From IMG/VR virus record IMGVR_UViG_3300033072_000717: 20,000 nucleotides of DNA; one strand, 5' to 3'. A program made the translations under genes and the position numbers. Origin of the DNA: an uncultured virus (IMG/VR IMGVR_UViG_3300033072_000717). Lineage: Duplodnaviria; Heunggongvirae; Uroviricota; Caudoviricetes. Below, piece after piece: positions 5,347 through 14,442 of the stretch (its first letter is position 1; the number at the start of each line of letters is the position of its first letter). The notes below the pieces were generated by a model, which did no database searches, had not been told where the DNA came from, and worked only from the letters and a program-made list of their open reading frames with translations.

Positions 5347-7041
5347 TCAGCGTGCCCAATCGAAGAAGCGCTTCCCGATGATGGCAGCGGCCTGACGCTT
5401 GTTCATCTTGACCGCCGCGGGATCGGGAATGCCGAGCTGCTTGAGAAAGTTCATTTGCCGGACGCTGGCCAAGCCAAGCCGTTCGCGGTCGCGGATGCGG
5501 GCGATGACCTTCTGTGCCAGCCCGGTCGTCTTGATCGCACTGGTGTCGATGCCGGCCTGAAGGATAAAGTCCAGCTCGGCGCGGGCCGGGGGGCGGGCAT
5601 CCGCCGTGGTTTCCGGGACATAGGACGCCAGGACCTCATCCCCGACCGAGACTGCCCATGCCAGGGGGTCAATCGTCCTCGGCTGCTTCTTACTGTGCTT
5701 CCGCGCCTCCTTCTCCAAGGTCTTGATCAGGTCCCGCTCGGCGTCCCTGGTCGCATCCTTCACGGCATCGAGCATGGACTTGGTGGACTTCTTCATCTTC
5801 TCCTTGATCTCCGCCGTATCAGCGACCGCATCAAGCGCGTCGCACAGGTCAATGCGCTCGTGAATCCAGAGCGGGTCCAAGATCAGCAGGTTGGGCTTTT
5901 TGCTGGCGGCGATTGCGGCGCGCCTTTCCTCGGCGGTCATTGACTGGTTTACCACCCCGGGGAGCACGCGGGTCCCGCGCCCGACCAGCTGCCGGTAGAA
6001 CCCCTTCGACTTGGTGGCCCGGGCGACCAGTACGCAATCGGTGTCAGGGAAGTCAGCACCCTCGGTGTAGAGCGCCGCATTCACCAGCACAGTGCCGGGT
6101 CCGGCGTCCACATAACGCTGGGTCTTCTCGTCCACATCCAGGCACTCGCCCGAGACGAAGATTCCGGTCATGCCCTTGGCTGTGATCGCATCGGCCAGCA
6201 GTTTGGCGCAGTGGATTGACGGCGTGAACGCGATGGTCTTTCGGTCCTTGGCCAACGCGGCCACCTGCTCGGCGAGGGCGCCGATGACGGGCTCCAGCTT
6301 GCGCGAAAGGTCGCCAGCCCGGAAGTCCGAGCCGTTCGGCGTGCGCCCGGGGCGAAGGTCGCGAATGTCAATCCTGAGCGGCATCGACTTGGTGGTCGGT
6401 GGCACCAGCCAGCCGTCCTCCACGGCGGAGATCAGGGAATACGGGGGTTCGACAAAGTAATCGAAGAACTCGGCCAGCTCCTCAATTGGGGTGGCCGTGA
6501 TACCGAGGACCCGCGCCTTGTGCTGGTAGGTGCCACGCGGGGGCGCGACCCAGCCCTCGGCCAGTGACTCGGCCCCGATGTGGAAGTAGTTCAGGACCCG
6601 CAGCCATGTTTCCGCGACAACGTGGTGACTTTCGTCGGCCACGATCAGGTCAAAGTGATCGTCGGCAAATGCGGAAAGTCGATTGACGCGGGCCAAAGTC
6701 TGCACGCTGGCCACCACGACCATGGCCTGCGGGCTTGCGCTCTCGCCCGCCATCTCGATCGCCGCCTCGACGCCGGTTTCGGCGGTGATGCGATGGGCGG
6801 ACTGCCTGACCAGCTTGTCGCGGTTCGCGAGGAACAGGCAGCGCCGCCCAGCGGCGACCTCGCGCCGGAAAATCTCGGCGGCAACGGTCGTCTTCCCTGT
6901 TCCGGTCGCCATCTCCAGCAGGATGCGCGGAAACCTCGGCCAATGCCGATAGATGGTGTCTATCCTGGTCAGCTGGTAGTCGCGCGGCGCAAACCCCGAG
7001 GCCGCAGGGGCGTCGTCGTCAAAGCACAAGCCTTCTGGCAT
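5347..7041 (-). CDS. Superfamily 2 DExH helicase (Irc3/YejH-like phage helicase)
   Basis: Q motif RDYQ, Walker A ATGTGKT, DESHH, GITATP, LYTEGADFP and QLVGRGTR. Confidence 0.93.
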   Translation of the reverse strand: MPEGLCFDDDAPAASGFAPRDYQLTRIDTIYRHWPRFPRILLEMATGTGKTTVAAEIFRREVAAGRRCLFLANRDKLVRQSAHRITAETGVEAAIEMAGESASPQAMVVVASVQTLARVNRLSAFADDHFDLIVADESHHVVAETWLRVLNYFHIGAESLAEGWVAPPRGTYQHKARVLGITATPIEELAEFFDYFVEPPYSLISAVEDGWLVPPTTKSMPLRIDIRDLRPGRTPNGSDFRAGDLSRKLEPVIGALAEQVAALAKDRKTIAFTPSIHCAKLLADAITAKGMTGIFVSGECLDVDEKTQRYVDAGPGTVLVNAALYTEGADFPDTDCVLVARATKSKGFYRQLVGRGTRVLPGVVNQSMTAEERRAAIAASKKPNLLILDPLWIHERIDLCDALDAVADTAEIKEKMKKSTKSMLDAVKDATRDAERDLIKTLEKEARKHSKKQPRTIDPLAWAVSVGDEVLASYVPETTADARPPARAELDFILQAGIDTSAIKTTGLAQKVIARIRDRERLGLASVRQMNFLKQLGIPDPAAVKMNKRQAAAIIGKRFFDWAR

Positions 7042-7077
7042 CGGGGTTGATTCTTGCTAAAGGGGTGGAGGGGAGGC

Positions 7078-7127
7078 GTTAGCGGGGGTTGATATGCGAA
7101 CCGCCGGTTTGATATTCAGTGTTAGGC
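7078..7127 (+). repeat. Array head element copy 1 (attI-like candidate) ending in core GTTAGGC
   Basis: 42/46 nt identical to 8599-8644, diverging right after GTT. Internal repeat GGTTGATAT/GTTTGATAT; no left AAC core. Confidence 0.6.
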
Positions 7128-7324
7128 CGAGAGAGGTCCAAGAACGCCGTGCATCGCGTGCCGTGAAGTTCGTTGGTCCACTTGTCGAAAAGCGGGCAGT
7201 AGCCGACATGCATCCGGGGCTGGCAGGGCTCCCAGTGGTGGCATGCGCGGCAGTGTCCCGCCGAACCCTCGCCTGTGCCAACGCTTTTGCTCTGTCCTTT
7301 TTCGGTTATGATTTCTCCGCTCAT
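7079..7324 (-). CDS. Cys-rich hypothetical cassette protein
   Basis: CRACHHW...YCPLFDKW...C pattern. The start lies in attC 7260-7378 with an ATGA overlap; the C-terminus runs into the head element. Confidence 0.7.
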   Translation of the reverse strand: MSGEIITEKGQSKSVGTGEGSAGHCRACHHWEPCQPRMHVGYCPLFDKWTNELHGTRCTAFLDLSRPNTEYQTGGSHINPR

Positions 7325-7378
7325 GGTTTCGGGGTGGTTGAAGGGTTGGGCCCGCCGTCGCTAAGCTTTTCGTTCGGA
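7260..7378 (+). repeat. attC-like site (arms pair poorly)
   Basis: GCCGAAC at 7260 and GCTAAGC-5 nt-GTTCGGA at 7372. Cores and spacing fit but the inner arms are mismatched. Confidence 0.55.
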
Positions 7379-7617
7379 AAGACGGCGGCGCGGAAGTTTG
7401 CGGGAGAGTCGGTATGATAGCGGAGGTCGTCGATGATGTCGCCAGCGGTGGTCAGGCATCCCTCGCGCGCGGTCTGCATGGCCAGCCATTCGCGGCACGC
7501 CTCAAGCGTGGATTCAATTTCCGAACCCGGCGCCAGAGCCAACGCCCGTTGCTGGGCCGGTTGGTCGGGGATGGCTCCAACGCTCGGGGCCGGTGAGTTG
7601 TTCGGGGCGTGGCTCAT
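7321..7617 (-). CDS. Hypothetical cassette protein
   Basis: 98-aa ORF whose start and stop both lie inside the flanking attC-like sites. Confidence 0.65.
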   Translation of the reverse strand: MSHAPNNSPAPSVGAIPDQPAQQRALALAPGSEIESTLEACREWLAMQTAREGCLTTAGDIIDDLRYHTDSPANFRAAVFPNEKLSDGGPNPSTTPKP

Positions 7618-7631
7618 CTTATTTGTTCGGC
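7520..7631 (+). repeat. attC-like site
   Basis: TCCGAAC...GAGCCA(A)CGC pairs with GCGTGGCTC...GTTCGGC. Confidence 0.7.
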
Positions 7632-7954
7632 CGACTGACCGTGATGGCGAATCGACCGATTTGGAGAATCACACGCGGGAGGTTTCTCGCGGCTTTAAGA
7701 TGGCTCTCGTTTGCGATGTCGCAGGCGAACACCCGCACTTCATGCGGCAGCGCGAGGTTGTCGGTGTGGTTCTGGAGTCTGTCCTTGCGCCCAGCCGCCC
7801 ACGCATCGCCAAGAAGTTTGTGGGCGTCGTTGAGCGCGGCTTGCTGCGTGCCTTTGGAGTAGCACAGCCAGAACCAAGAAGGCCCGGCCATGCGCCAGAG
7901 CCAGCGCCGGAGAGCGCCAGTGAGAATGCGGAGTCGTGGGGCGGCGTGGCTCAT
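7619..7954 (-). CDS. Hypothetical cassette protein
   Basis: Starts MSHA from the attC right arm, like the 7617 gene, and ends RPNK* in the next site. Confidence 0.5.
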   Translation of the reverse strand: MSHAAPRLRILTGALRRWLWRMAGPSWFWLCYSKGTQQAALNDAHKLLGDAWAAGRKDRLQNHTDNLALPHEVRVFACDIANESHLKAARNLPRVILQIGRFAITVSRPNK

Positions 7955-7969
7955 TTCGGAATGTTAGAC
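7882..7969 (+). repeat. attC-like site with mutated left core
   Basis: CGCCAGAGCCAGCGCC (7893-7908) pairs with GGCGTGGCTC, and GTTAGAC is at 7963. The left core reads GCCCGGC instead of ..AAC. Confidence 0.6.
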
Positions 7970-8014
7970 AAGGCAGACCATTTTCCCGGCGTCAGGAAAT
8001 TGGTTCTCCTTTGC

Positions 8015-8572
8015 CTAGCGCGGCTTCCCCCCTTCGCTGCGCCTGATAATGTCGTCCAAAACGGCCCGCACCGTCCTGATTTCCTGCGCGGTCATCTCCC
8101 CGCAGCGGAGCCGCATCGCGTCGTCGCTGAGGCCGCGCCACTCCCGCACGGCCACAGAACAGCAACCTTGTTCGAGCGAGGCGATTTCGCTCGGGGTCGG
8201 ATGCCCACGATAGCGGGCAATGTCATCGGCCATTTTTTGCGCCTCGGGCGAATGATGATTGTCGGCCCTAAAGATTCCATCGTGGGGCGGACCGGCTTCT
8301 TCCGCCTTGGGCTGCGCGATGATGCCCCGCAAGCGGGCGATCTCCGCAAGCGCGCATTGGGCAATCTCGATGGTGTGCGGGTGGAATCCGCCCTTGGATT
8401 CCGCGATGTAGGTAAGGCCGTCCGTGCCGTCGTTGAACCGGAAAAGCAGGGAGTGGGGTTCCGCCGGCTGGTCATCCCCATCCCTCCACAAGTCCAGGCC
8501 AAAAGCGGCGGCTTCGGCCTGGAGGCGGTCGGCGGCGGCGGACCACGAGGTGGGTTTTTCGGGTGGGTTCAT
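8015..8572 (-). CDS. Hypothetical phage protein
   Basis: 185-aa ORF co-oriented with the operon; C-terminal DAMRLRCGEMTAQEIRTVRAVL. No intact attC of its own is seen. Confidence 0.65.
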   Translation of the reverse strand: MNPPEKPTSWSAAADRLQAEAAAFGLDLWRDGDDQPAEPHSLLFRFNDGTDGLTYIAESKGGFHPHTIEIAQCALAEIARLRGIIAQPKAEEAGPPHDGIFRADNHHSPEAQKMADDIARYRGHPTPSEIASLEQGCCSVAVREWRGLSDDAMRLRCGEMTAQEIRTVRAVLDDIIRRSEGGKPR

Positions 8573-8598
8573 TTTTGGTAAGCTGGTGTTGGTTGGGG

Positions 8599-8648
8599 GT
8601 TAGCGGGGGTTGATATGCGAACCGGGAGTTTGATATTCACTGTTCAGC
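8599..8648 (+). repeat. Array head element copy 2 (attI-like candidate) ending in core GTTCAGC
   Basis: Near-identical to 7078-7127. Confidence 0.6.
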
Positions 8649-8972
8649 TTAGAGGGACATTGGGGTGTGCCACGCGTCGCCGAAGACCTCGCGGTCGTAG
8701 CGCTCCTCGGGCGTCTCGTCGTCCTCATCGAGCGGGTCGTCTTGCAGGTCGTCGCAGAGGCCACCGGCCAGCACGCCAGCGCACGGGCAGTCATTCGAGC
8801 ATCGGCAGTGCTTCGCCATGCTTTCGACCCACGCTTGATATTCGGGATCGTCCGGCATGTCGGGAGCCTCGGGAAGAAGAGCTGAACCAGGCGCCACACC
8901 CAATTCCGGGGCGCGGTCCGTTTCAGCTTCGGCGGGAGATTGCAGCGGGCGAGAGTCGTTCGGCGTATTCAT
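8649..8972 (-). CDS. Acidic Cys-cluster cassette protein
   Basis: HCRCSNDCPCAGVLAGGLCD motif and an acidic tail. ATGA-coupled start inside attC 8881-9011. Confidence 0.7.
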   Translation of the reverse strand: MNTPNDSRPLQSPAEAETDRAPELGVAPGSALLPEAPDMPDDPEYQAWVESMAKHCRCSNDCPCAGVLAGGLCDDLQDDPLDEDDETPEERYDREVFGDAWHTPMSL

Positions 8973-9011
8973 ATTTTCAGGCCCCGGAATTGGTGATCTT
9001 GGTGGTTCGGC
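8881..9011 (+). repeat. attC-like site
   Basis: GCTGAAC...CAC(C)CAATTCCGGGGC pairs with GCCCCGGAATTGGTG...GTTCGGC (15 bp with one bulge). Confidence 0.8.
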
Positions 9012-9433
9012 GGAAGCACCTCAGACGGGTGTCCGTATTTTTGCCACACGGGAGTCGGCTGTTTCTCTCTCGGTTCTAGCGTAGCCCGCAGTCGATCCAA
9101 GAACCTTGAGTCACCCGCCACGTCTGGATCGTCTTGCGCTTCGCAGTAATCGGATATTGCTACGCGGTATCGTGCAATCTCGGCGTCCAGTCGGACAATC
9201 TCGTGGTCATCCTTGGCCATTGCCGCGTCCATTTTTTCGAGCGTCTGGATTGCACGGAATAGCGTCAGCGTCACCGGGTGCTGATTTGCACGAAATTCGG
9301 CAGCCCACTCGCGGAGGTTATCCACAAGATAAGGCACGCCGAACAAGCGATCAGAGCCAACGCTGACAGCGGCTCCTTGGTTTTCGATAGTTGGATTTGT
9401 ATTCATGGGTTGAGAGTAGTTCTGCGCTGTCAT
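8969..9433 (-). CDS. Hypothetical cassette protein (coiled-coil-like)
   Basis: Start at 9433 or 9406, both inside attC 9338-9457. Ends PPNHQDHQFRGLKI* inside the next attC. Confidence 0.7.
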   Translation of the reverse strand: MTAQNYSQPMNTNPTIENQGAAVSVGSDRLFGVPYLVDNLREWAAEFRANQHPVTLTLFRAIQTLEKMDAAMAKDDHEIVRLDAEIARYRVAISDYCEAQDDPDVAGDSRFLDRLRATLEPREKQPTPVWQKYGHPSEVLPPNHQDHQFRGLKI

Positions 9434-9457
9434 CGTGGCTCACTCGCAGGGTTAGCT
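9338..9457 (+). repeat. attC-like site
   Basis: GCCGAAC AA GCGA..GAGCCA(A)CG.TGACAGCG pairs with CGCTGTCA.CGTGGCTC..TCGC AGG GTTAGCT. Confidence 0.85.
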
Positions 9458-9745
9458 GGCTTTCGCCTCGGCGGTTTCGCGCCGCAGAGGACACCAGTTT
9501 GGTTGTATGTCTTTTGACCCGATTTCGCGCCCATGTTCCAGCAGCCGCCCGCGTATCTCGCCTTGCTTCGCCGCAATCTTCGGGTCGTCAGACAGCGGTT
9601 CATCGTCGAAGGCTTCTGGATGTTTGCACACACAGTCGCAGGTGATTCCGTGGAGACGCGAGCAGAGCATGTTCGTGCGCTTCAGGTGTTCGCACGGCTC
9701 ACAGTGGCGTTCCGTTCTGGCCGGGATGTTGTGTGTCGTTGGCAT
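9452..9745 (-). CDS. Cys-rich hypothetical cassette protein
   Basis: HCEPCEH, CVCKHP and PNWCPL motifs. The TAA stop lies inside the core at 9451-9457. Confidence 0.75.
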   Translation of the reverse strand: MPTTHNIPARTERHCEPCEHLKRTNMLCSRLHGITCDCVCKHPEAFDDEPLSDDPKIAAKQGEIRGRLLEHGREIGSKDIQPNWCPLRRETAEAKAS

Positions 9746-10044
9746 TAGTCCTTTCGCATCGTGTCGAGCCAGCGGCAGAAGGCATCGTCACCGATTTCAT
9801 TGCAGATGACGGATTGCAGCATATCGCCGAGTTGATTCCACCCGATGTCATCACAGTCGAGATGGTGTTTCGCGTAGGCACAGAGGACGGCGTGCAGCAG
9901 CCGGTCGTTGCGGCCAGCGTGTTTGTTCAGTTCGTGGTAGTTCGGATTTGTGAGAGGTTCGACGCCAGCTAACAAAGCGGTGCAGCACAACTCGGCTTCG
10001 CGCTTGGCTTCGGACTTCGGTTTCTGGTTGGCGGTTGCGCTCAT
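9745..10044 (-). CDS. Hypothetical cassette protein
   Basis: TAATG-coupled to the downstream gene. ATGA-coupled start inside attC 9967-10101. Confidence 0.75.
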   Translation of the reverse strand: MSATANQKPKSEAKREAELCCTALLAGVEPLTNPNYHELNKHAGRNDRLLHAVLCAYAKHHLDCDDIGWNQLGDMLQSVICNEIGDDAFCRWLDTMRKD

Positions 10045-10101
10045 TTCATTCCTTCGCTTTCTGGTGTTCGGCCAGCCGAGTGGCTGACCTTATCGTTCGG
10101 C
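9967..10101 (+). repeat. attC-like site (best conserved)
   Basis: AGCTAAC AAAGC GGT(G)CAGC(A)CA(A)CTCGGCT pairs with AGCCGAG TG GCTG ACC TTATC GTTCGGC. This is a perfect stem with three unpaired bases in the left arm and 5-nt spacers. Confidence 0.9.
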
Positions 10102-10415
10102 CTATCGGGAATGACTTCGCCGCAGACCCAGCAATACACCTCGCCCTCGAATTGGTATTTCCTCGGATGCGTGCATTTGCCGCCGCCTACATCCACGTAG
10201 TCCGCCACACGCCGGCGGGCCGCGTGCAGTAGGTTGATCGAATCCGTCAGCCATGGGTGCGGCGGCATCGCGTCGATGATTTTCACGGCGTCCCAGATCG
10301 CCTTTTCGGCGGGCGTGAATTGGTCGATGCGGTCGCGGCGAATTGCCGAACCCTCGGCCACAGCACAACCGGCGTCTTTGTCCGGCTTGCGACTATTTTC
10401 AGTTGGATTTCGCAT
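10041..10415 (-). CDS. Hypothetical cassette protein with C-terminal CxH..CxxC motif
   Basis: 124-aa ORF with both ends inside attC-like sites. Confidence 0.75.
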   Translation of the reverse strand: MRNPTENSRKPDKDAGCAVAEGSAIRRDRIDQFTPAEKAIWDAVKIIDAMPPHPWLTDSINLLHAARRRVADYVDVGGGKCTHPRKYQFEGEVYCWVCGEVIPDRPNDKVSHSAGRTPESEGMK

Positions 10416-10469
10416 AGAGTGTTGGCGCGGCTTTAGCCCCGCGCCGGTGGCTGATCCGAACCGTTAGAT
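10345..10469 (+). repeat. attC-like site
   Basis: GCCGAAC..TCGG..CAGC(A)CA(A)CCGGCG pairs with CGCCGG TG GCTG..CCGA..GTTAGAT. Confidence 0.85.
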
Positions 10470-10685
10470 AAACTGAATCGGAAGTCTGTTCCACTTGCCG
10501 CACGACGGGCAGTTCGCCACCGCGCACTCGTCGTTTCGTCCGCGATTAAATGGGTAGTATCGGCGCGTTTCAAAGGGGCGCTTGCAGTTGCCGCAGATGA
10601 TCCCGGCCTTCGGGTTTCCCCAAAGACAGATATTCCACGCCTCGAAATGGGCGGCGTTGCAGAGTTGATCTTGGGTTATCGTCAT
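10464..10685 (-). CDS. Zinc-ribbon-like cassette protein
   Basis: ICGNC...NCPSCGKWN motifs. The TAA stop lies within the core at 10463-10469. Confidence 0.7.
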   Translation of the reverse strand: MTITQDQLCNAAHFEAWNICLWGNPKAGIICGNCKRPFETRRYYPFNRGRNDECAVANCPSCGKWNRLPIQFI

Positions 10686-10689
10686 AAGC

Positions 10690-10790
10690 ACCTAACAAAG
10701 CGCTGGGGACAATGCGGTCAGCTTTCACGCTGTCTTGTCGTGCAGGTTTATTTACGTTTGTTGATCTGGCGAAAGTTTCAGGTGTTCGGG
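10690..10790 (+). repeat. Degenerate or hybrid attC-like site
   Basis: ACCTAAC AAAG CGCTGG.. on the left and GTTCGGG at 10784. The inner arms do not pair. Confidence 0.45.
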
Positions 10791-11092
10791 CCGCGCGTCT
10801 CACCTTTGTCGTTCACCCTGCGTTTTTCGGCCCCGTAAATAACCTCCAGCGCCTTCCTTTGAAGCTCGGCGCGCTGTTCGGGCGTGTAGCTATTCATCCG
10901 CTTTCGCGCTTGCGCGCAGGCTCGCATGGTGCGCCGGTGCTGGTTGCGGCGGTGTGCGGCCATATCAACCAGATGGAACTCGCATCCGTCCGGGGTGCGG
11001 CGGGCAAAGCAGGAGAGGACCGCAATGAGCGCAGATTCTTTTGTTTTGGTCCCCTTAACGGTAAGGACGAACTGATGTTGTTTGATTTTCAT
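10778..11092 (-). CDS. Hypothetical basic protein
   Basis: 104-aa ORF ending GPNT* across the core at 10784. Confidence 0.65.
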   Translation of the reverse strand: MKIKQHQFVLTVKGTKTKESALIAVLSCFARRTPDGCEFHLVDMAAHRRNQHRRTMRACAQARKRMNSYTPEQRAELQRKALEVIYGAEKRRVNDKGETRGPNT

Positions 11093-11159
11093 GGAAATTA
11101 AAAGTGCTAACCAGTGGGTTCATAAAACGGCGGCGATCCTCTGTCTCGGTGCTCCGTGT

Positions 11160-11309
11160 TCACCCCATCCATCGGCGCAGCACCAGTTCAGCGGCCATCT
11201 CATCCGCGATCGCGCAGAAACGGTGCCAGTTGCGGCGGTTGCCAAAGGTTGATTTAACCTCGGGCAGTGCGTCGAAGAAGAAGTTCACCAAGCTTAGGTC
11301 GAATGCCAT
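11160..11309 (-). CDS. Small hypothetical protein (49 aa, MAFDLSLVNFFFDALPEV...)
   Basis: Read manually; it fills the gap in the minus-strand operon. Confidence 0.45.
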   Translation of the reverse strand: MAFDLSLVNFFFDALPEVKSTFGNRRNWHRFCAIADEMAAELVLRRWMG

Positions 11310-11319
11310 GTTTTGAGTT

Positions 11320-11577
11320 TTAAGGGGTGACCTGGCTCACCGTGACAGTCGGTTGGACCGAAGGCAAGAGCGGAAGGCGGATAAACCAGCCCGCTTCGTA
11401 CCAGGAGCCTTTGTATTTTTCAACGTGCTGCTTTGCGATGCGCACGTCAAAGGTGATGAAGTCGTTGATCGCTCGCTGGCCCGATGCGCAGTCGATGCCG
11501 GTGGTGTGCCCACACAAGAGCGCCGAACCCTCGGTTTCGCCCGGCGCCGCCTGGCGGTCTGGCTGGCCAACGCTCAT
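11320..11577 (-). CDS. Hypothetical protein, eroded cassette
   Basis: ATGA-coupled start. Carries the GCCGAACCCTCG left core at 11522 (the EGSA peptide seen in other cassettes). Confidence 0.6.
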   Translation of the reverse strand: MSVGQPDRQAAPGETEGSALLCGHTTGIDCASGQRAINDFITFDVRIAKQHVEKYKGSWYEAGWFIRLPLLPSVQPTVTVSQVTP

Positions 11578-11966
11578 CGCCCATTCCCCCCGACAAACTC
11601 CCGAATCCGCTTCGCGACCTCGGCTGGCGTGGTATAGCACCCTCGCGGGTATTGTGCAGACATAAAGAGCAAGCCGGCTTGCCGCAAATCAACCCCGAAG
11701 AAAGCCGTCACGGCTGCCCAGCTAACATGCCCTTTGTATTCTGGGACAGCCGTGTGCCGCTCGCGCTTCTTCAGTCGAAGCCCTGCCTTCTTAAACCCCG
11801 GGTGGGTTGTCGCCCAGCCAACTGCGCACGCGGTTGTCCCGCAGCCGCCAATGCGCTTGCCCTTCGGCTTGTGGGCCCAGCACGACAGGTCAAACTGCTC
11901 CTTGGGCACGGTGTCCAGCAGGTCGGCCAGCATGAGGAGCCGGCGGTGGGTGGCTTCGGTTTTCAT
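11574..11966 (-). CDS. Hypothetical phage protein (CGTTACAVGW motif)
   Basis: 130-aa ORF, ATGA-coupled at both ends. Confidence 0.75.
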   Translation of the reverse strand: MKTEATHRRLLMLADLLDTVPKEQFDLSCWAHKPKGKRIGGCGTTACAVGWATTHPGFKKAGLRLKKRERHTAVPEYKGHVSWAAVTAFFGVDLRQAGLLFMSAQYPRGCYTTPAEVAKRIREFVGGNGR

Positions 11967-12433
11967 TTCTCGTCGGGGGTTGGGCTATCGCCGTTCGGCC
12001 TGCTGCAAAGCGGGCGCAGGCACTCCTGGATCATTCCGATCGTCGTGGGGTCCGGCGCCCTCCTGCGCTCGTTCATCCACTCGACCAACTCATCCGCGTA
12101 TCGCTCGCGACAGCGTATCAAGTCCCGGGCTTCTGCGAGCGATACGCAGCAATCGGCCACATCCAGCCGCCGCGACAGCGCAACCAGCAGCCCCTCCGCC
12201 GACCCGGGCGTGAGCCCGAACGTGAGTTCGCAGGTTTTGCCGTCGTCGGTGGGCCGAAAGAAGCGGAGGCAGTAGCCGCCATGCTCCTTGATGCGCCAGA
12301 CTTCCACCCTCCGGCCTTCGCCGCAGTCCACCGTGATGCCGTCGGTCAGCGTGGCGTTCCTGATCCTGCCGATGTTGGCCTCGTGGAAGGGGACGGTCTC
12401 CGCCGTGTGTGACTCGATCAAATCCTTATTCAT
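11963..12433 (-). CDS. Hypothetical phage protein
   Basis: 156-aa ORF, the first large gene of the minus-strand operon. Ends RPNGDSPTPDEK* across GTTCGGC at 11993. Confidence 0.65.
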   Translation of the reverse strand: MNKDLIESHTAETVPFHEANIGRIRNATLTDGITVDCGEGRRVEVWRIKEHGGYCLRFFRPTDDGKTCELTFGLTPGSAEGLLVALSRRLDVADCCVSLAEARDLIRCRERYADELVEWMNERRRAPDPTTIGMIQECLRPLCSRPNGDSPTPDEK

Positions 12434-12722
12434 GCGGGCCTCCGATCTTGGGGCGCCACCCCCGCGCCCTCAGCATCAACCATGATCAGCTTTTTCATCG
12501 TGCCCAAGCCAAATCACAGGTGCGCCCATCCGTCAAGCGGTTTTTTGGGCCAGCTCCATCGCCAGCCCGCTTGCCCACCACCGCATCCTCCACCGCCAGC
12601 CCGCCCTCCCCCCAAGCCGCCCCCCAAGCCAATTTTCTCTGACGGCAAAATCCGCCGCCCCCTGCTATTGTAAAAATCCCGAGCATCCCGCTGACTCCCA
12701 CTGTGTTACCACCACTTTCGGC

Positions 12723-13186
12723 TGCAATTGTAAAATCTCGGAAGTAACCTCCCGGCGGTTTTGAAATGTAAAAGTCCTAAGTCGCTGATCATCAGGGCGG
12801 GGAAACCTCTCGTGATAGTTACTTCCGAGTTACTTCCGAGCCCTTTTTTTACACTTTTCTCTGACAGCAAAAAAGCTTCGGAAGTAACCTCCCGCCGAAA
12901 AACGGGCCAAAAACCGGGGCAGAAAGGCGGCCCGGAACTTCCACTACCGGATAGAGGGCAGCGACTTCCGTGAGCGGGGATCGGCGGCTGTGTGCAATTG
13001 TAAAATCTCGGAAGTAACTCGGAAGTAACTCGGAAGTAACTGCCCTTTTTGGGGCCAGACGGCGGCTCGTAAGTAACCCTCAGGCTGGCCCCCCCCTAAA
13101 GGGGGGGCCAGCACTGTAGGTAGTTACTTCCGAGCGCAGAACGCCGTCAAGACATGGCCGGGGGTTACTTCCGACTTTTTACAATT
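12723..13186. repeat. Cluster of ten 11-bp TCGGAAGTAAC repeats around a GC hairpin (candidate origin or operator array)
   Basis: + copies at 12738, 12878, 13008, 13019, 13030 and 13067 (1 mismatch); - copies at 12818, 12829, 13123 and 13164. Hairpin GCTGGC7/G7CCAGC at 13084-13112. Confidence 0.85.
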
Positions 13187-13715: not shown

Positions 13716-13856
13716 AGTCCACTTGTGCAAGTCAGTGCGAGCCAGTGCCTTGCGCTTGTTGAGACTGGCAAACGCGCGGGCTTGCGGCAAATGGCCCTAG
13801 TGTGCTAGGGGGAATCCCCTACGCGCCTGCAAGCCTAGCCGGATCAGCGCACGGCA

Positions 13857-14442
13857 CCAGGCGGCCGGTGCGGAACATGGCTTCCTCGGCGGTGATGTTC
13901 TCGGTCGGGTAGAACTCGATCCGGTCGATTTGGACGCGGTCGGCGTCCCAGTAATGCGGATTGCGCTCGACCGCGATGCGCTGGTTGCGGGCCCATTCGA
14001 CGAGGCGGTAGGGGCCGCTGCTGACGAAGCGCCCGGCGCGGGTCCAGGGCACGCTGCGCTGGTCGAGGGGTCCGTGGGACGTGATCGCGTGCAGGGGCAG
14101 GGGCCACCATGAGTAGTGGTTGGCCATGAGGCGGAGGAGGAAGGGGGTGGGGGAGTTGAGGGTGACGGTGACCGTGCTCTCGTCGGGAGCGGCGAAGCCG
14201 ACCTGGGACCAGTCGGTGAGCCGGCCCTTGTTGTAGGCCTCGGCGCCGACGACGAACCACAGGTGGTAGGAGTACTCGGAGCCGAGCGCGGGGGTGAGCA
14301 TGCGCCGGAAGGAGGCCACGATCTCGGAAGCGGTGATCGGGACGCCGTCGGACCACTTCAGGCCGGGACGGAGGTGGAAGGTGTAGACACGGCCGTCGGG
14401 GGAGATGTCCCAGCGTTCGGCGAGGCCCGGCTCGGGCTCGGC
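13857..14442 (-). pseudogene. oppA: Internal fragment of a bacterial peptide ABC transporter substrate-binding protein (SBP family 5, OppA-like)
   Basis: EPGLAERWDISPDGRVYTFHLRPGLKWSDGVPITA...SSGPYRLVEW...ERNPHYWD...AMFRTGRL. It has no start, signal peptide or C-terminal half. Confidence 0.9.

Follow-up and report, generated by a model that had tools for sequence, protein, structure and literature searches.

The window analysed here is a stretch of 20,000 nucleotides that corresponds to bases 32601-52600 of a 54.1-kb linear virus record (IMG/VR IMGVR_UViG_3300033072_000717), whose completeness is estimated by CheckV at 79%. Its minus strand carries an operon of 15 small open reading frames (ORFs; 7079..12433) that continues, according to the ORF list, into a helicase gene (5347-7041). 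The ORFs lie at 7079-7324, 7321-7617, 7619-7954, 8015-8572 and 8649-8972, followed by 8969-9433, 9452-9745, 9745-10044, 10041-10415 and 10464-10691, and finally by 10778-11092, 11160-11309, 11320-11577, 11574-11966 and 11963-12433, all on the minus strand. None of the 15 matched a Pfam family above cut-off, and the matches obtained in a PHROG search were weak and confined to one ORF; homologues were found for the products of 8969-9433 (154-aa protein) and 10041-10415 (124-aa protein). An earlier note on this DNA had proposed that folded sites in the operon are attC sites, the recombination sites of integron cassettes, and that they double as coding DNA, each gene taking its N-terminus from its own site and its C-terminal tail and stop from the neighbouring one. 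The data presented below support this interpretation in large part.

The sites follow, on the gene strand, the pattern AAC-N9-GAGCCACG...CGTTGGCTC-N9-GTT, with lengths of 88-135 nt in the window; in its fuller form the pattern reads [RYYY]AAC-N9-(T)GAGCCACG-inner stem-loop-inner stem-CG-T-TGGCTC-TG-N7-GTT[RRRY]. A covariance model (R1) was built from 14 aligned sites (alignment A4), and RNAalifold recovered the L helix. The 154-aa protein was used to retrieve eight metagenome loci, among which L015, L016 and L017 were fetched by its leader alone. In the window and loci L010-L018, R1 gave 42 matches at E<=1e-5, 42/42 of them on the gene strand, and the arrays were dense (8 sites in 4 kb in L015, 7 in 3.2 kb in L014, and 6 in 2.8 kb in L011). 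Echoes on the reverse strand were far weaker (17 vs 112 bits for site e, 15 vs 76 bits for site b, both described below). In an alignment of the R1 matches (A5, 41 distinct rows), which is fitted to R1 and thereby favours structure, 92.5% of the cells were paired as compared with 33-44% when the partner column was slid, changes on both sides were observed in 11/15 pairs, and the covariation score was 0.389 vs 0.109 in shuffled alignments, a value equalled in 0/500 shuffles. The independent MAFFT alignment A4 gave 91.7% vs 35-41% of paired cells and a covariation score of 0.160 vs 0.067. Each of the three AAC/GTT pairs was kept in 37-38 of the 41 rows of A5, with outer boxes of the types GCCGAAC, GCCTAAC, GTCTAAC ... 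GTTCGGC, GTTAGGC, GTTGGGC. The L helix was paired in 95% of the cells, with changes on both sides in 10/11 pairs and with box variants such as GAGCCA/TGGCTC, CAGCCA/TGGCTG, GAGACA/TGTCTC and GAGGGA/TCCCTC. A bulged T was found on the 3′ arm, between CG and TGGCTC, in nearly all rows, and the 9-nt spacers were mostly non-complementary. R1 matches were 57-191 nt long (1/42 exceeding 141 nt), and their loops ranged from a few to ~120 nt.

With filters off, R1 revealed seven significant sites (E 3e-4 to 3e-34) and a marginal one, all within a 3.6-kb part of the window and on the minus strand. The marginal site a (7260..7378; 8.4 bits, E 0.45, filters off) has cores TCCGAAC (5′) and GTTCGGC (3′); gene 7321-7617 has its tail and stop here, and gene 7079-7324 begins here, at ATGA 7321-7324. 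In site b (7520..7631; 76.1 bits, E 1e-22) the L boxes pair with one bulged T, the 5′ core GCCGAAC is translated as R-P-N-K followed by a stop, and the ATG at 7617 overlaps the L′ box ATGAGCCACG. The L′ box is likewise overlapped by the ATG at 7954 in site c (7882..7969; 50.2 bits, E 2e-14), the 3′ core of which is degenerate, with GCCGGGC where GTT... would be expected. Site d (8881..9011; 22.8 bits, E 1e-5, filters off) is characterized by a single-stranded DNA fold and an inverted 12-mer; its 5′ core GCCGAAC is translated as P-P-N, its loop contains ATGA 8969-8972, and the start is enclosed by the 12-bp stem CAATTCCGGGGC/GCCCCGGAATTG. The best-scoring site e (9338..9457; 112 bits, E 3e-34) has a core, AGCTAAC, containing the TAA stop of gene 9452-9745, bears the ATG at 9433 in its 5′ arm, and codes for the 32-residue leader of the 154-aa protein. 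Site f (9967..10101; 18.4 bits, E 3e-4, filters off) includes ATGA 10041-10044, its 5′ core GCCGAAC being translated as R-P-N-D. In site g (10345..10469; 39.2 bits, E 7e-11) the TAA stop of gene 10464-10691 lies within the core ATCTAAC, and the ATG at 10415 opens the leader of the 124-aa protein. Finally, gene 10778-11092 receives both its tail RVNDKGETRGPNT and its stop from site h (10690..10817; 28.6 bits, E 1.5e-7), which has a start (10691/10685) at its 3′ core GTTAGGT. Beyond 10817, R1 with filters off found nothing convincing in the window; a possible relic 3′ half-site at 11522..11541 (-), CGAGGGTTCGGC, matched at E ~6 and was excluded from the site count, its 12-mer being the same as in sites a and g (three exact copies). 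An Rfam scan of the window returned nothing relevant. Elsewhere on the same contig, locus L003 (G000:C1:1625-1688, +) presents an extra site of the family (25 bits, E ~1e-5), at a distance of 38 kb from the array; it has the same strand as the genes around it and spans the junction of ORFs 1122-1658 and 1668-2084.

The seven start codons that the earlier note had placed inside attC-like sites all fall within R1 matches obtained with filters off: 7324 in 7260-7378 (the weak site), 7617 in 7520-7631, 7954 in 7882-7969, 8972 in 8881-9011, 9433 in 9338-9457, 10044 in 9967-10101, and 10415 in 10345-10469. Among the eight starts of the window, three lie in the paired 5′ arm and the remaining ones in the loop. 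The ATGA stop-start overlaps that it listed at 7321-4, 8969-72 and 10041-4 follow directly from the ORF coordinates; two further ones, at 11574-7 and 11963-6, are outside the detected sites. As for the seven Pro-Asn peptides claimed at the cores, all are present, and FPNEK, RPNK, PPNHQ and RPNDK occur at 5′ cores of R1 matches. GPNT is found at a second core within site 10690-10817, where the R1 core reads V-N in the same phase. On the other hand, RPNTE (7121-7127) coincides with only a weak R1 half-match (E 1.5), and at RPNGD (11993-11999) R1 had no match. Regarding the three stops said to lie at or inside cores, those of 9452 and 10464 are indeed the TAA within xxxTAAC cores, and that of 8649 is 2 nt before a weak core.

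The identity of this family was addressed through bacterial genomes. A pattern of two L boxes plus GTT retrieved 119 stretches from a bacterial genome collection, most of them with titles corresponding to Opitutaceae, Opitutus, Lacunisphaera, Ereboglobus, Oleiharenicola and other Verrucomicrobiota, and a few being short contigs binned to other phyla. R1 detected 22, 23, 12 and 6 co-oriented sites on four of these bacterial loci. The integron integrase profile TIGR02249 (IntI) scored 364-379 bits, against a cut-off of 265, in 4/5 Opitutaceae genomes searched, and in two genomes intI was located ~0.9 and 1.6 kb from the first site, beside arrays of 12 and 22 sites, on the strand of the R1 orientation. 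Since the same family forms arrays beside integron integrase genes in Opitutaceae chromosomes, we conclude that the sites are attC. An attC site is an imperfect palindrome with outer boxes RYYYAAC ... GTTRRRY, inner L boxes that pair with extrahelical base(s) on one arm, an unpaired R-L spacer, a variable terminal loop and a total length of ~57-141 nt; in the bottom strand, the extrahelical bases are on the 3′ arm. The AAC/GTT palindrome, the L boxes with their bulge and spacer, the loop and length, and the arrays beside intI were all found in this family, although its spacer is of 9 nt in place of the 5-6 nt of classical attC. The GTTRRRY core is also the one quoted for attC by Qi 2023 (PMC9892861).

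Integron cassettes are mostly transcribed away from intI (PMC4889954) and intI lies on the strand of the R1 orientation, so the gene strand of the phage corresponds to the attC bottom strand. The breakpoints at the 5′ AAC of the gene strand, described below, and the bulge on the 3′ arm agree with this assignment. No match to TIGR02249, PF00589 or PF00239 was obtained in a search of the 54-kb contig for integrases and recombinases. With seven significant sites and a weak one of the attC family within 3.6 kb and no integrase match on the contig, the phage array is thus a cluster of attC sites lacking integron integrase (CALIN) in the sense of Cury et al. 2016. A classical cassette has its gene on the top strand, pointing away from intI, with attC downstream; the phage cassettes have their genes on the bottom strand and are therefore filed as a reversed variant. 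Host cassette ORFs with a Pfam match (1/8 on the top strand, 0/6 on the bottom strand) were too few to decide orientation by themselves. No sign of exchange between phage and host arrays was obtained when the 15 cluster proteins were compared by tblastn with 123 fetched loci: none of the loci titled Opitutaceae was matched, and the matches were to phage G001, the record of locus L010, and to two contigs, one titled Sulfuritalea and a short one titled Deltaproteobacteria. One host cassette (L091, 14720-15709, +) encodes a DUF4357 protein with a weak match to the RAMA (restriction enzyme adenine methylase associated) domain.

Breaks of similarity of the kind that an exchange of cassettes would leave are visible at the DNA level. 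One whole cassette of the window (9006..9451, -) is made up of site e plus the 154-aa gene body, and it extends as far as the AA of the next core. Locus L011 has only the stretch 9453-9005 in common with the window, at 95% identity; just inside the edges of this unit the identity was 60/61 and 55/61, and just outside it dropped to 17/70 and 20/70. Assembled contigs from runs of four studies, labelled wastewater, activated sludge, drinking water and freshwater, gave the same picture in 4/4 cases, covering 9005/6-9453/5 with 0-3 differences and with both flanks unlike those of the window, and in run X3 the stretch 10345-10465 was present alone, also with unlike flanks. The copies of site e in L011-L018 are 92-96% identical and adjoin unrelated flanks. 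In the loci with site e, the upstream flanks differ in 7/7 up to AAC (GAC in L012), L016 and L018 having a common flank. L015-L018 share with the window only the segment from 9455 to ~9356, that is, the site, and their gene bodies differ; L017 also carries the site of 10467-10379 (88% identity) ahead of another body. The earlier note had located the crossover at G|TT. Similarity does break exactly at the AAC cores, and on the gene strand G|TT becomes its complement, AA|C, because the genes are on the bottom strand. An attC site is recombined by IntI as a folded bottom strand with crossover at G|TT; what is seen here are the probable footprints of such a reaction, namely the breaks of similarity at the core in L011 and in the contigs of the four runs.

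Breaks at a repeated hairpin could also be produced if the hairpins were boundary or regulatory elements owned by the phage, similar to the PeSL of T4-type phages, and were shuffled by homologous or illegitimate recombination with no integron integrase involved. PeSL-mediated shuffling of small early ORFs is documented (PMC2839356, PMC4122927), neither the contig nor its complete relative G001 has an integrase match, and the presence of the same site on different bodies, with breaks away from AA|C, would fit such a process. Nevertheless, the breaks fall on a 3-nt core and not inside the conserved stretch of 100 nt, an attC architecture is recognizable in the AAC/GTT cores, the bulge and the loop of variable length, and the same family forms 12- and 22-site arrays directly beside Opitutaceae IntI genes, so that we give this explanation a small chance of being correct. 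PeSL elements resemble the window sites in being repeated stem-loops on either side of small early ORFs whose function is unknown, in hyperplastic regions where related phages exchange modules; they are described as promoter-terminator motifs (Arbiol et al. 2010, PMC2839356), whereas the window sites lie in reading frames and belong to the attC family.

The reading of the array as attC-bounded cassettes predicts mosaic proteins, and the earlier note had anticipated that similarity among homologues would begin after the core peptide and end at PN, with tails differing according to their neighbour. This is what was observed for the 154-aa protein, for which 32 homologues at E<=1e-3 were found among 67 candidates (alignment A2). 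Thirteen of them keep the 32-residue leader (<=97% identity where matching) and are unrelated after ...DRL[F/L][G/A], and 13 homologues of the body carry other leaders. In the 11 sequences (including the query) that reach ...PSEV..PN, similarity stops there and the tails differ. The 124-aa protein matched 497 cluster representatives at E<=1e-3, mostly from residue 24-26 on, just past the EGSA peptide, and the relative most similar to it, at 84% identity, diverges upstream of residue 12 and beyond PN. These protein mosaics match the cassette model. The shared part of the 124-aa protein (10041-10415, -; residues 25-76) is a domain of ~50 residues (RIDQFTPAEKAIWDA...) that is usually N-terminal in the 497 clusters and for which the Pfam copy searched has no family. 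L048/L049, a 54.6-kb contig titled as a Sulfuritalea metagenome-assembled genome (MAG), encodes a homologue of the 154-aa protein (76% identity) and, further upstream, a fusion of the 124-aa protein's leader to another body; the size and content of this contig suggest a related phage binned into a bacterial MAG.

The coding design of the phage-type arrays differed from that of the host arrays. The phage-type set for counts of consecutive site pairs comprised the window and L011-L017, L018 being left out as a duplicate of L016. An ORF running from inside one site into the next was present in 19/32 phage-type pairs vs 3/57 host pairs. In line with the one-sided frame use that the earlier note expected in a larger sample, 15 of these 19 ORFs take AAC as a codon and stop 6-48 nt further on, 3 end at the TAA of an xTAAC core, and 1 crosses in another phase; the three host ORFs show one case per phase. 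Conversely, the longest frame lay opposite to the model strand, on the top strand, in 44/57 host pairs vs 7/32 phage-type pairs. An ATG opening at least 50 codons was found in 36/46 distinct phage-type sites vs 15/63 host sites, and a phase-0 stop overlapping an ATG (ATGA or TAATG type) in 20/46 vs 5/63. The genes starting at 7617 and 7954 obtain their MSHA... from the L′ box ATGAGCCACG, the TGA of which ends the phase-1 readers. The 3′ core is translated in all three phases, as expected if no crossover takes place there.

The frame preference has to be considered against codon usage. PN occurs within the last 22 residues in 8/15 cluster proteins vs 3/53 other proteins of the contig. The coding-strand CCGAAC is read as CCG-AAC in 9/11 cases, the two exceptions being 10066 (R-T) and 10876 (P-E), neither of which is a site core. 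The frames used by CCGAAC in the other genes of the contig (9, 4, 1) favour the same reading, and therefore part of the bias reflects ordinary codon usage, which does not account for the position of PN near the C-terminus. The motifs themselves are concentrated in the region: GTTCGG has 11 occurrences in 7000-12500 vs 15 in the remaining 48.6 kb of the contig, and CCGAAC on the plus strand has 7 vs 14. Two other readings of these motifs were discarded. A check by eye for a promoter or Shine-Dalgarno function of CCGAAC found neither a fixed -10 partner nor a fixed spacing, and a peptide-motif reading of the 3′ arm was ruled out because the same DNA motif is read in three frames.

These comparisons bear on the possibility that the sites are ordinary non-coding attC, the ORFs running through them being artefacts of a GC content of 62% and the true genes lying between the 3′ core of one site and the 5′ core of the next. 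A GTG is indeed present directly after the 3′ core of site e (GGC GTG CCT), the homologue of the 124-aa protein in L009 begins near residue 22 of the window protein, the CCG-AAC frame is also favoured elsewhere in the contig, and the protein search was limited to in-frame ORF calls. However, the host arrays, with a similar GC content (0.54-0.70 in the sites), contain the very few site-to-site ORFs and stop-start overlaps given above, gene 7079-7324 has no in-frame start between its site and its Cys-rich domain, and L015, L016 and L017, although fetched by the leader alone, all stay in frame for 96-119 codons. Substitutions in the leader encoded by site e are mostly synonymous in the leader frame (5/7, vs 2 in each of the other frames, in a small sample). 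We therefore consider that the sites are unlikely to be non-coding.

Sites of this family are also present in a complete phage genome. G001 (69.9 kb, with terminal repeats) contains 13 of them, in clusters on both strands at ~1.3-2.4, 13.6, 21.4-21.8, 32.3 and 36.9-39.8 kb, and has no match to PF00589. At its 6-site cluster, four of the incoming ORFs cross in phase 0, one ends at a TAA core and one at the TGA of the L′ box. A mis-assembly joining bacterial integron DNA to the phage, or a prophage flank, would be compatible with a linear contig that is 79% complete and with the truncated solute-binding protein gene found at 13819-14319. The array, on the other hand, is continuous with the helicase gene of the phage on the same strand and lies between blocks of phage genes, another gene junction of the same contig, 38 kb from the array, also bears a site of the family, and the orientation of the genes is unlike that of the host arrays. 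Together with the 13 sites of G001, these observations make an artefact of this kind very improbable.

Altogether, the data make it highly probable that the region 7079-10817 (-) is an integrase-less CALIN of reversed cassettes, with coding attC sites, in the early operon of a phage of Opitutaceae. According to this interpretation, a cassette on the gene strand would begin with the C of AAC, continue through the 5′ arm (which includes the L′ box), loop, 3′ arm and GTTxGGC core into the gene body, and end with ...xxxxAA. The gene's own site would provide the start codon and a leader of 3-32 residues, the frame would cross the cassette boundary with AAC as a codon (usually as Pro-Asn, Ala-Asn or Ser-Asn), and the next site would give 1-17 tail codons and a stop, unless the gene stopped at the TAA of an xTAAC core. 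Because all cassettes cross in the same phase, exchange at AA|C would keep the genes in frame and beside a start codon. Cassettes may be exchanged on the phage DNA by the IntI of the host during infection; as the contig lacks an integrase, this step is one that we infer. Leaders and tails are presumably translated, and termination inside a site might open the hairpin that holds the next start, resulting in translational coupling.

Several observations weigh against this interpretation or limit it. The attC label is based on our own model R1 and on the neighbouring IntI genes, and the phage contig, which is 79% complete, has no integrase match. The score of site a is weak (E 0.45), and the sites implied by the earlier note beyond 10817 were not supported by R1. 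No site-to-site ORF is present in 13/32 phage-type pairs, and 3/19 of the positive pairs, those of the window, L011 and L012, derive from a single cassette family as homologous copies. RNA folds in 140-nt windows on 16 starts gave z scores of -2.5 to +1.5, with one below -2; these windows did not match the site limits. The known viral sequences are the window and L010 with its record G001, L011-L018 being short metagenome contigs, and the run data, as assembled contigs, show presence and junctions, not expression. Finally, four or more different gene bodies are joined to site e, and the breaks fall in the interval from the L″ box to the 3′ core, so that a single crossover at AA|C is insufficient; the joining of the same leader and site to different bodies indicates a second class of breakpoints near the 3′ core. 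This resembles the unexplained homogeneity of attC within large integrons (PMC4889954), and the array, with the same site and leader on many unrelated bodies, would, if the interpretation holds, be a system for asking how cassettes gain their attC.

Part of this picture was already known. CALINs have been described in phages, including virulent ones, with small cassettes mostly of unknown function, and the bacterial integrase IntI1 recombined 5/6 of the phage attC sites tested (Qi 2023, PMC9892861). The array described here is like those in being an attC array without intI in a phage. In the two phages presented as typical in that paper the cassettes are co-oriented, as is usual in bacteria, whereas the window array is entirely reversed, and the section of the paper on phage CALINs makes no mention of starts in attC, of tails or stops supplied by neighbours, of a fixed phase or of an all-reversed array. 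Sedentary chromosomal integrons and CALINs (Cury 2016, PMC4889954; Vit 2021, PMC8191803) have likewise co-oriented sites, 0.3-1 kb apart, and one attC type on many cassettes, as observed here. Bottom-strand selectivity is described as inserting cassettes in such a way that the promoter Pc can express them (PMC8191803); in contrast to these Pc-facing cassettes, the phage genes run in the opposite direction and are strung into one operon. Short frames inside an integron recombination site have a precedent in ORF-11 of attI1, which passes ribosomes to the next cassette gene, and attC hairpins in the mRNA affect translation (reviewed by Fonseca and Vicente 2022, PMC8876359). This coupling is limited to attI and the first cassette, and attC is treated in that work as a terminator or barrier and not as a coding linker. 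In a literature search with subscription journals and supplements outside its coverage, we found no paper on reversed cassettes with coding, fixed-phase attC.

In the usual view, integron sites are non-coding, their hairpins hinder expression, and cassettes are inserted for one bacterial promoter. Here, as judged from sequence, a single attC family appears to serve as recombination substrate, as code for tails and leaders, and as stop-start junction, in an orientation reversed to suit a phage operon. If this is true, phages could reshuffle accessory genes via the host integrase without breaking their frames, and the hyperplastic regions of phages would be linked to integrons. More tentatively, and with a greater chance of being wrong than right, Opitutaceae phages may keep a reversed cassette class of their own, in which attC sites act as universal linkers providing the fixed-phase boundary codon, tail, stop-start overlap and leader, and the host integrase adds, drops or reorders small early genes during infection while all of them remain translated within one operon, forming a phage gene bank, possibly of counter-defence genes, that mirrors the defence cassettes of bacterial integrons.

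Regarding the rest of the contig, the product of the helicase gene has 564 aa and matches PF04851 and phrog_16 (E 2.5e-59), and the rest of the contig codes for exonucleases as well as for large proteins of unknown family. Neither sites of the attC family nor an enrichment in CCGAAC was found in the helicase relatives, L001 and L002. No close relative was matched by blastn against 50,697 phage records, and the 156-aa protein had no relative among viral contigs. When the region was compared with the contig by self-BLAST, only a 90-nt repeat was prominent, the sites of the array being too diverged for BLAST to detect. Copy 1 of this repeat (7044..7133, -) lies just upstream of the helicase start (7041) and is 78% identical to copy 2 (8565-8654), just upstream of the start of the 185-aa gene (8572). 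In both, ATATCAAMC occurs as a pair of direct repeats 21 nt apart, together with a core, GCCTAAC/GCTGAAC; in copy 1 the core is GGCCTAAC, translated as R-P-N-T. The site model gave only weak half-matches on the two copies (7095-7127 and 8616-8648, E 1.5-1.9), and the 23-nt core of the repeat had no exact match among viral contigs. The 90-nt repeat could be a promoter, an operator, an attI-like element or a degenerate site.

At the head of the operon (12723-13186), a perfect 26-nt direct repeat was observed at 12723 and 12993, together with 24-nt perfect inverted repeats of GTTACTTCCGAG units (12817-12840 vs 13007-13041), and this region may be regulatory. Further upstream, the truncated gene at 13819-14319 (-) encodes 166 aa of a family-5 solute-binding protein (matches to PF00496, E 1.9e-23, and to phrog_18374), a fragment that spans only positions 42-171 of the 368 of the PF00496 profile.

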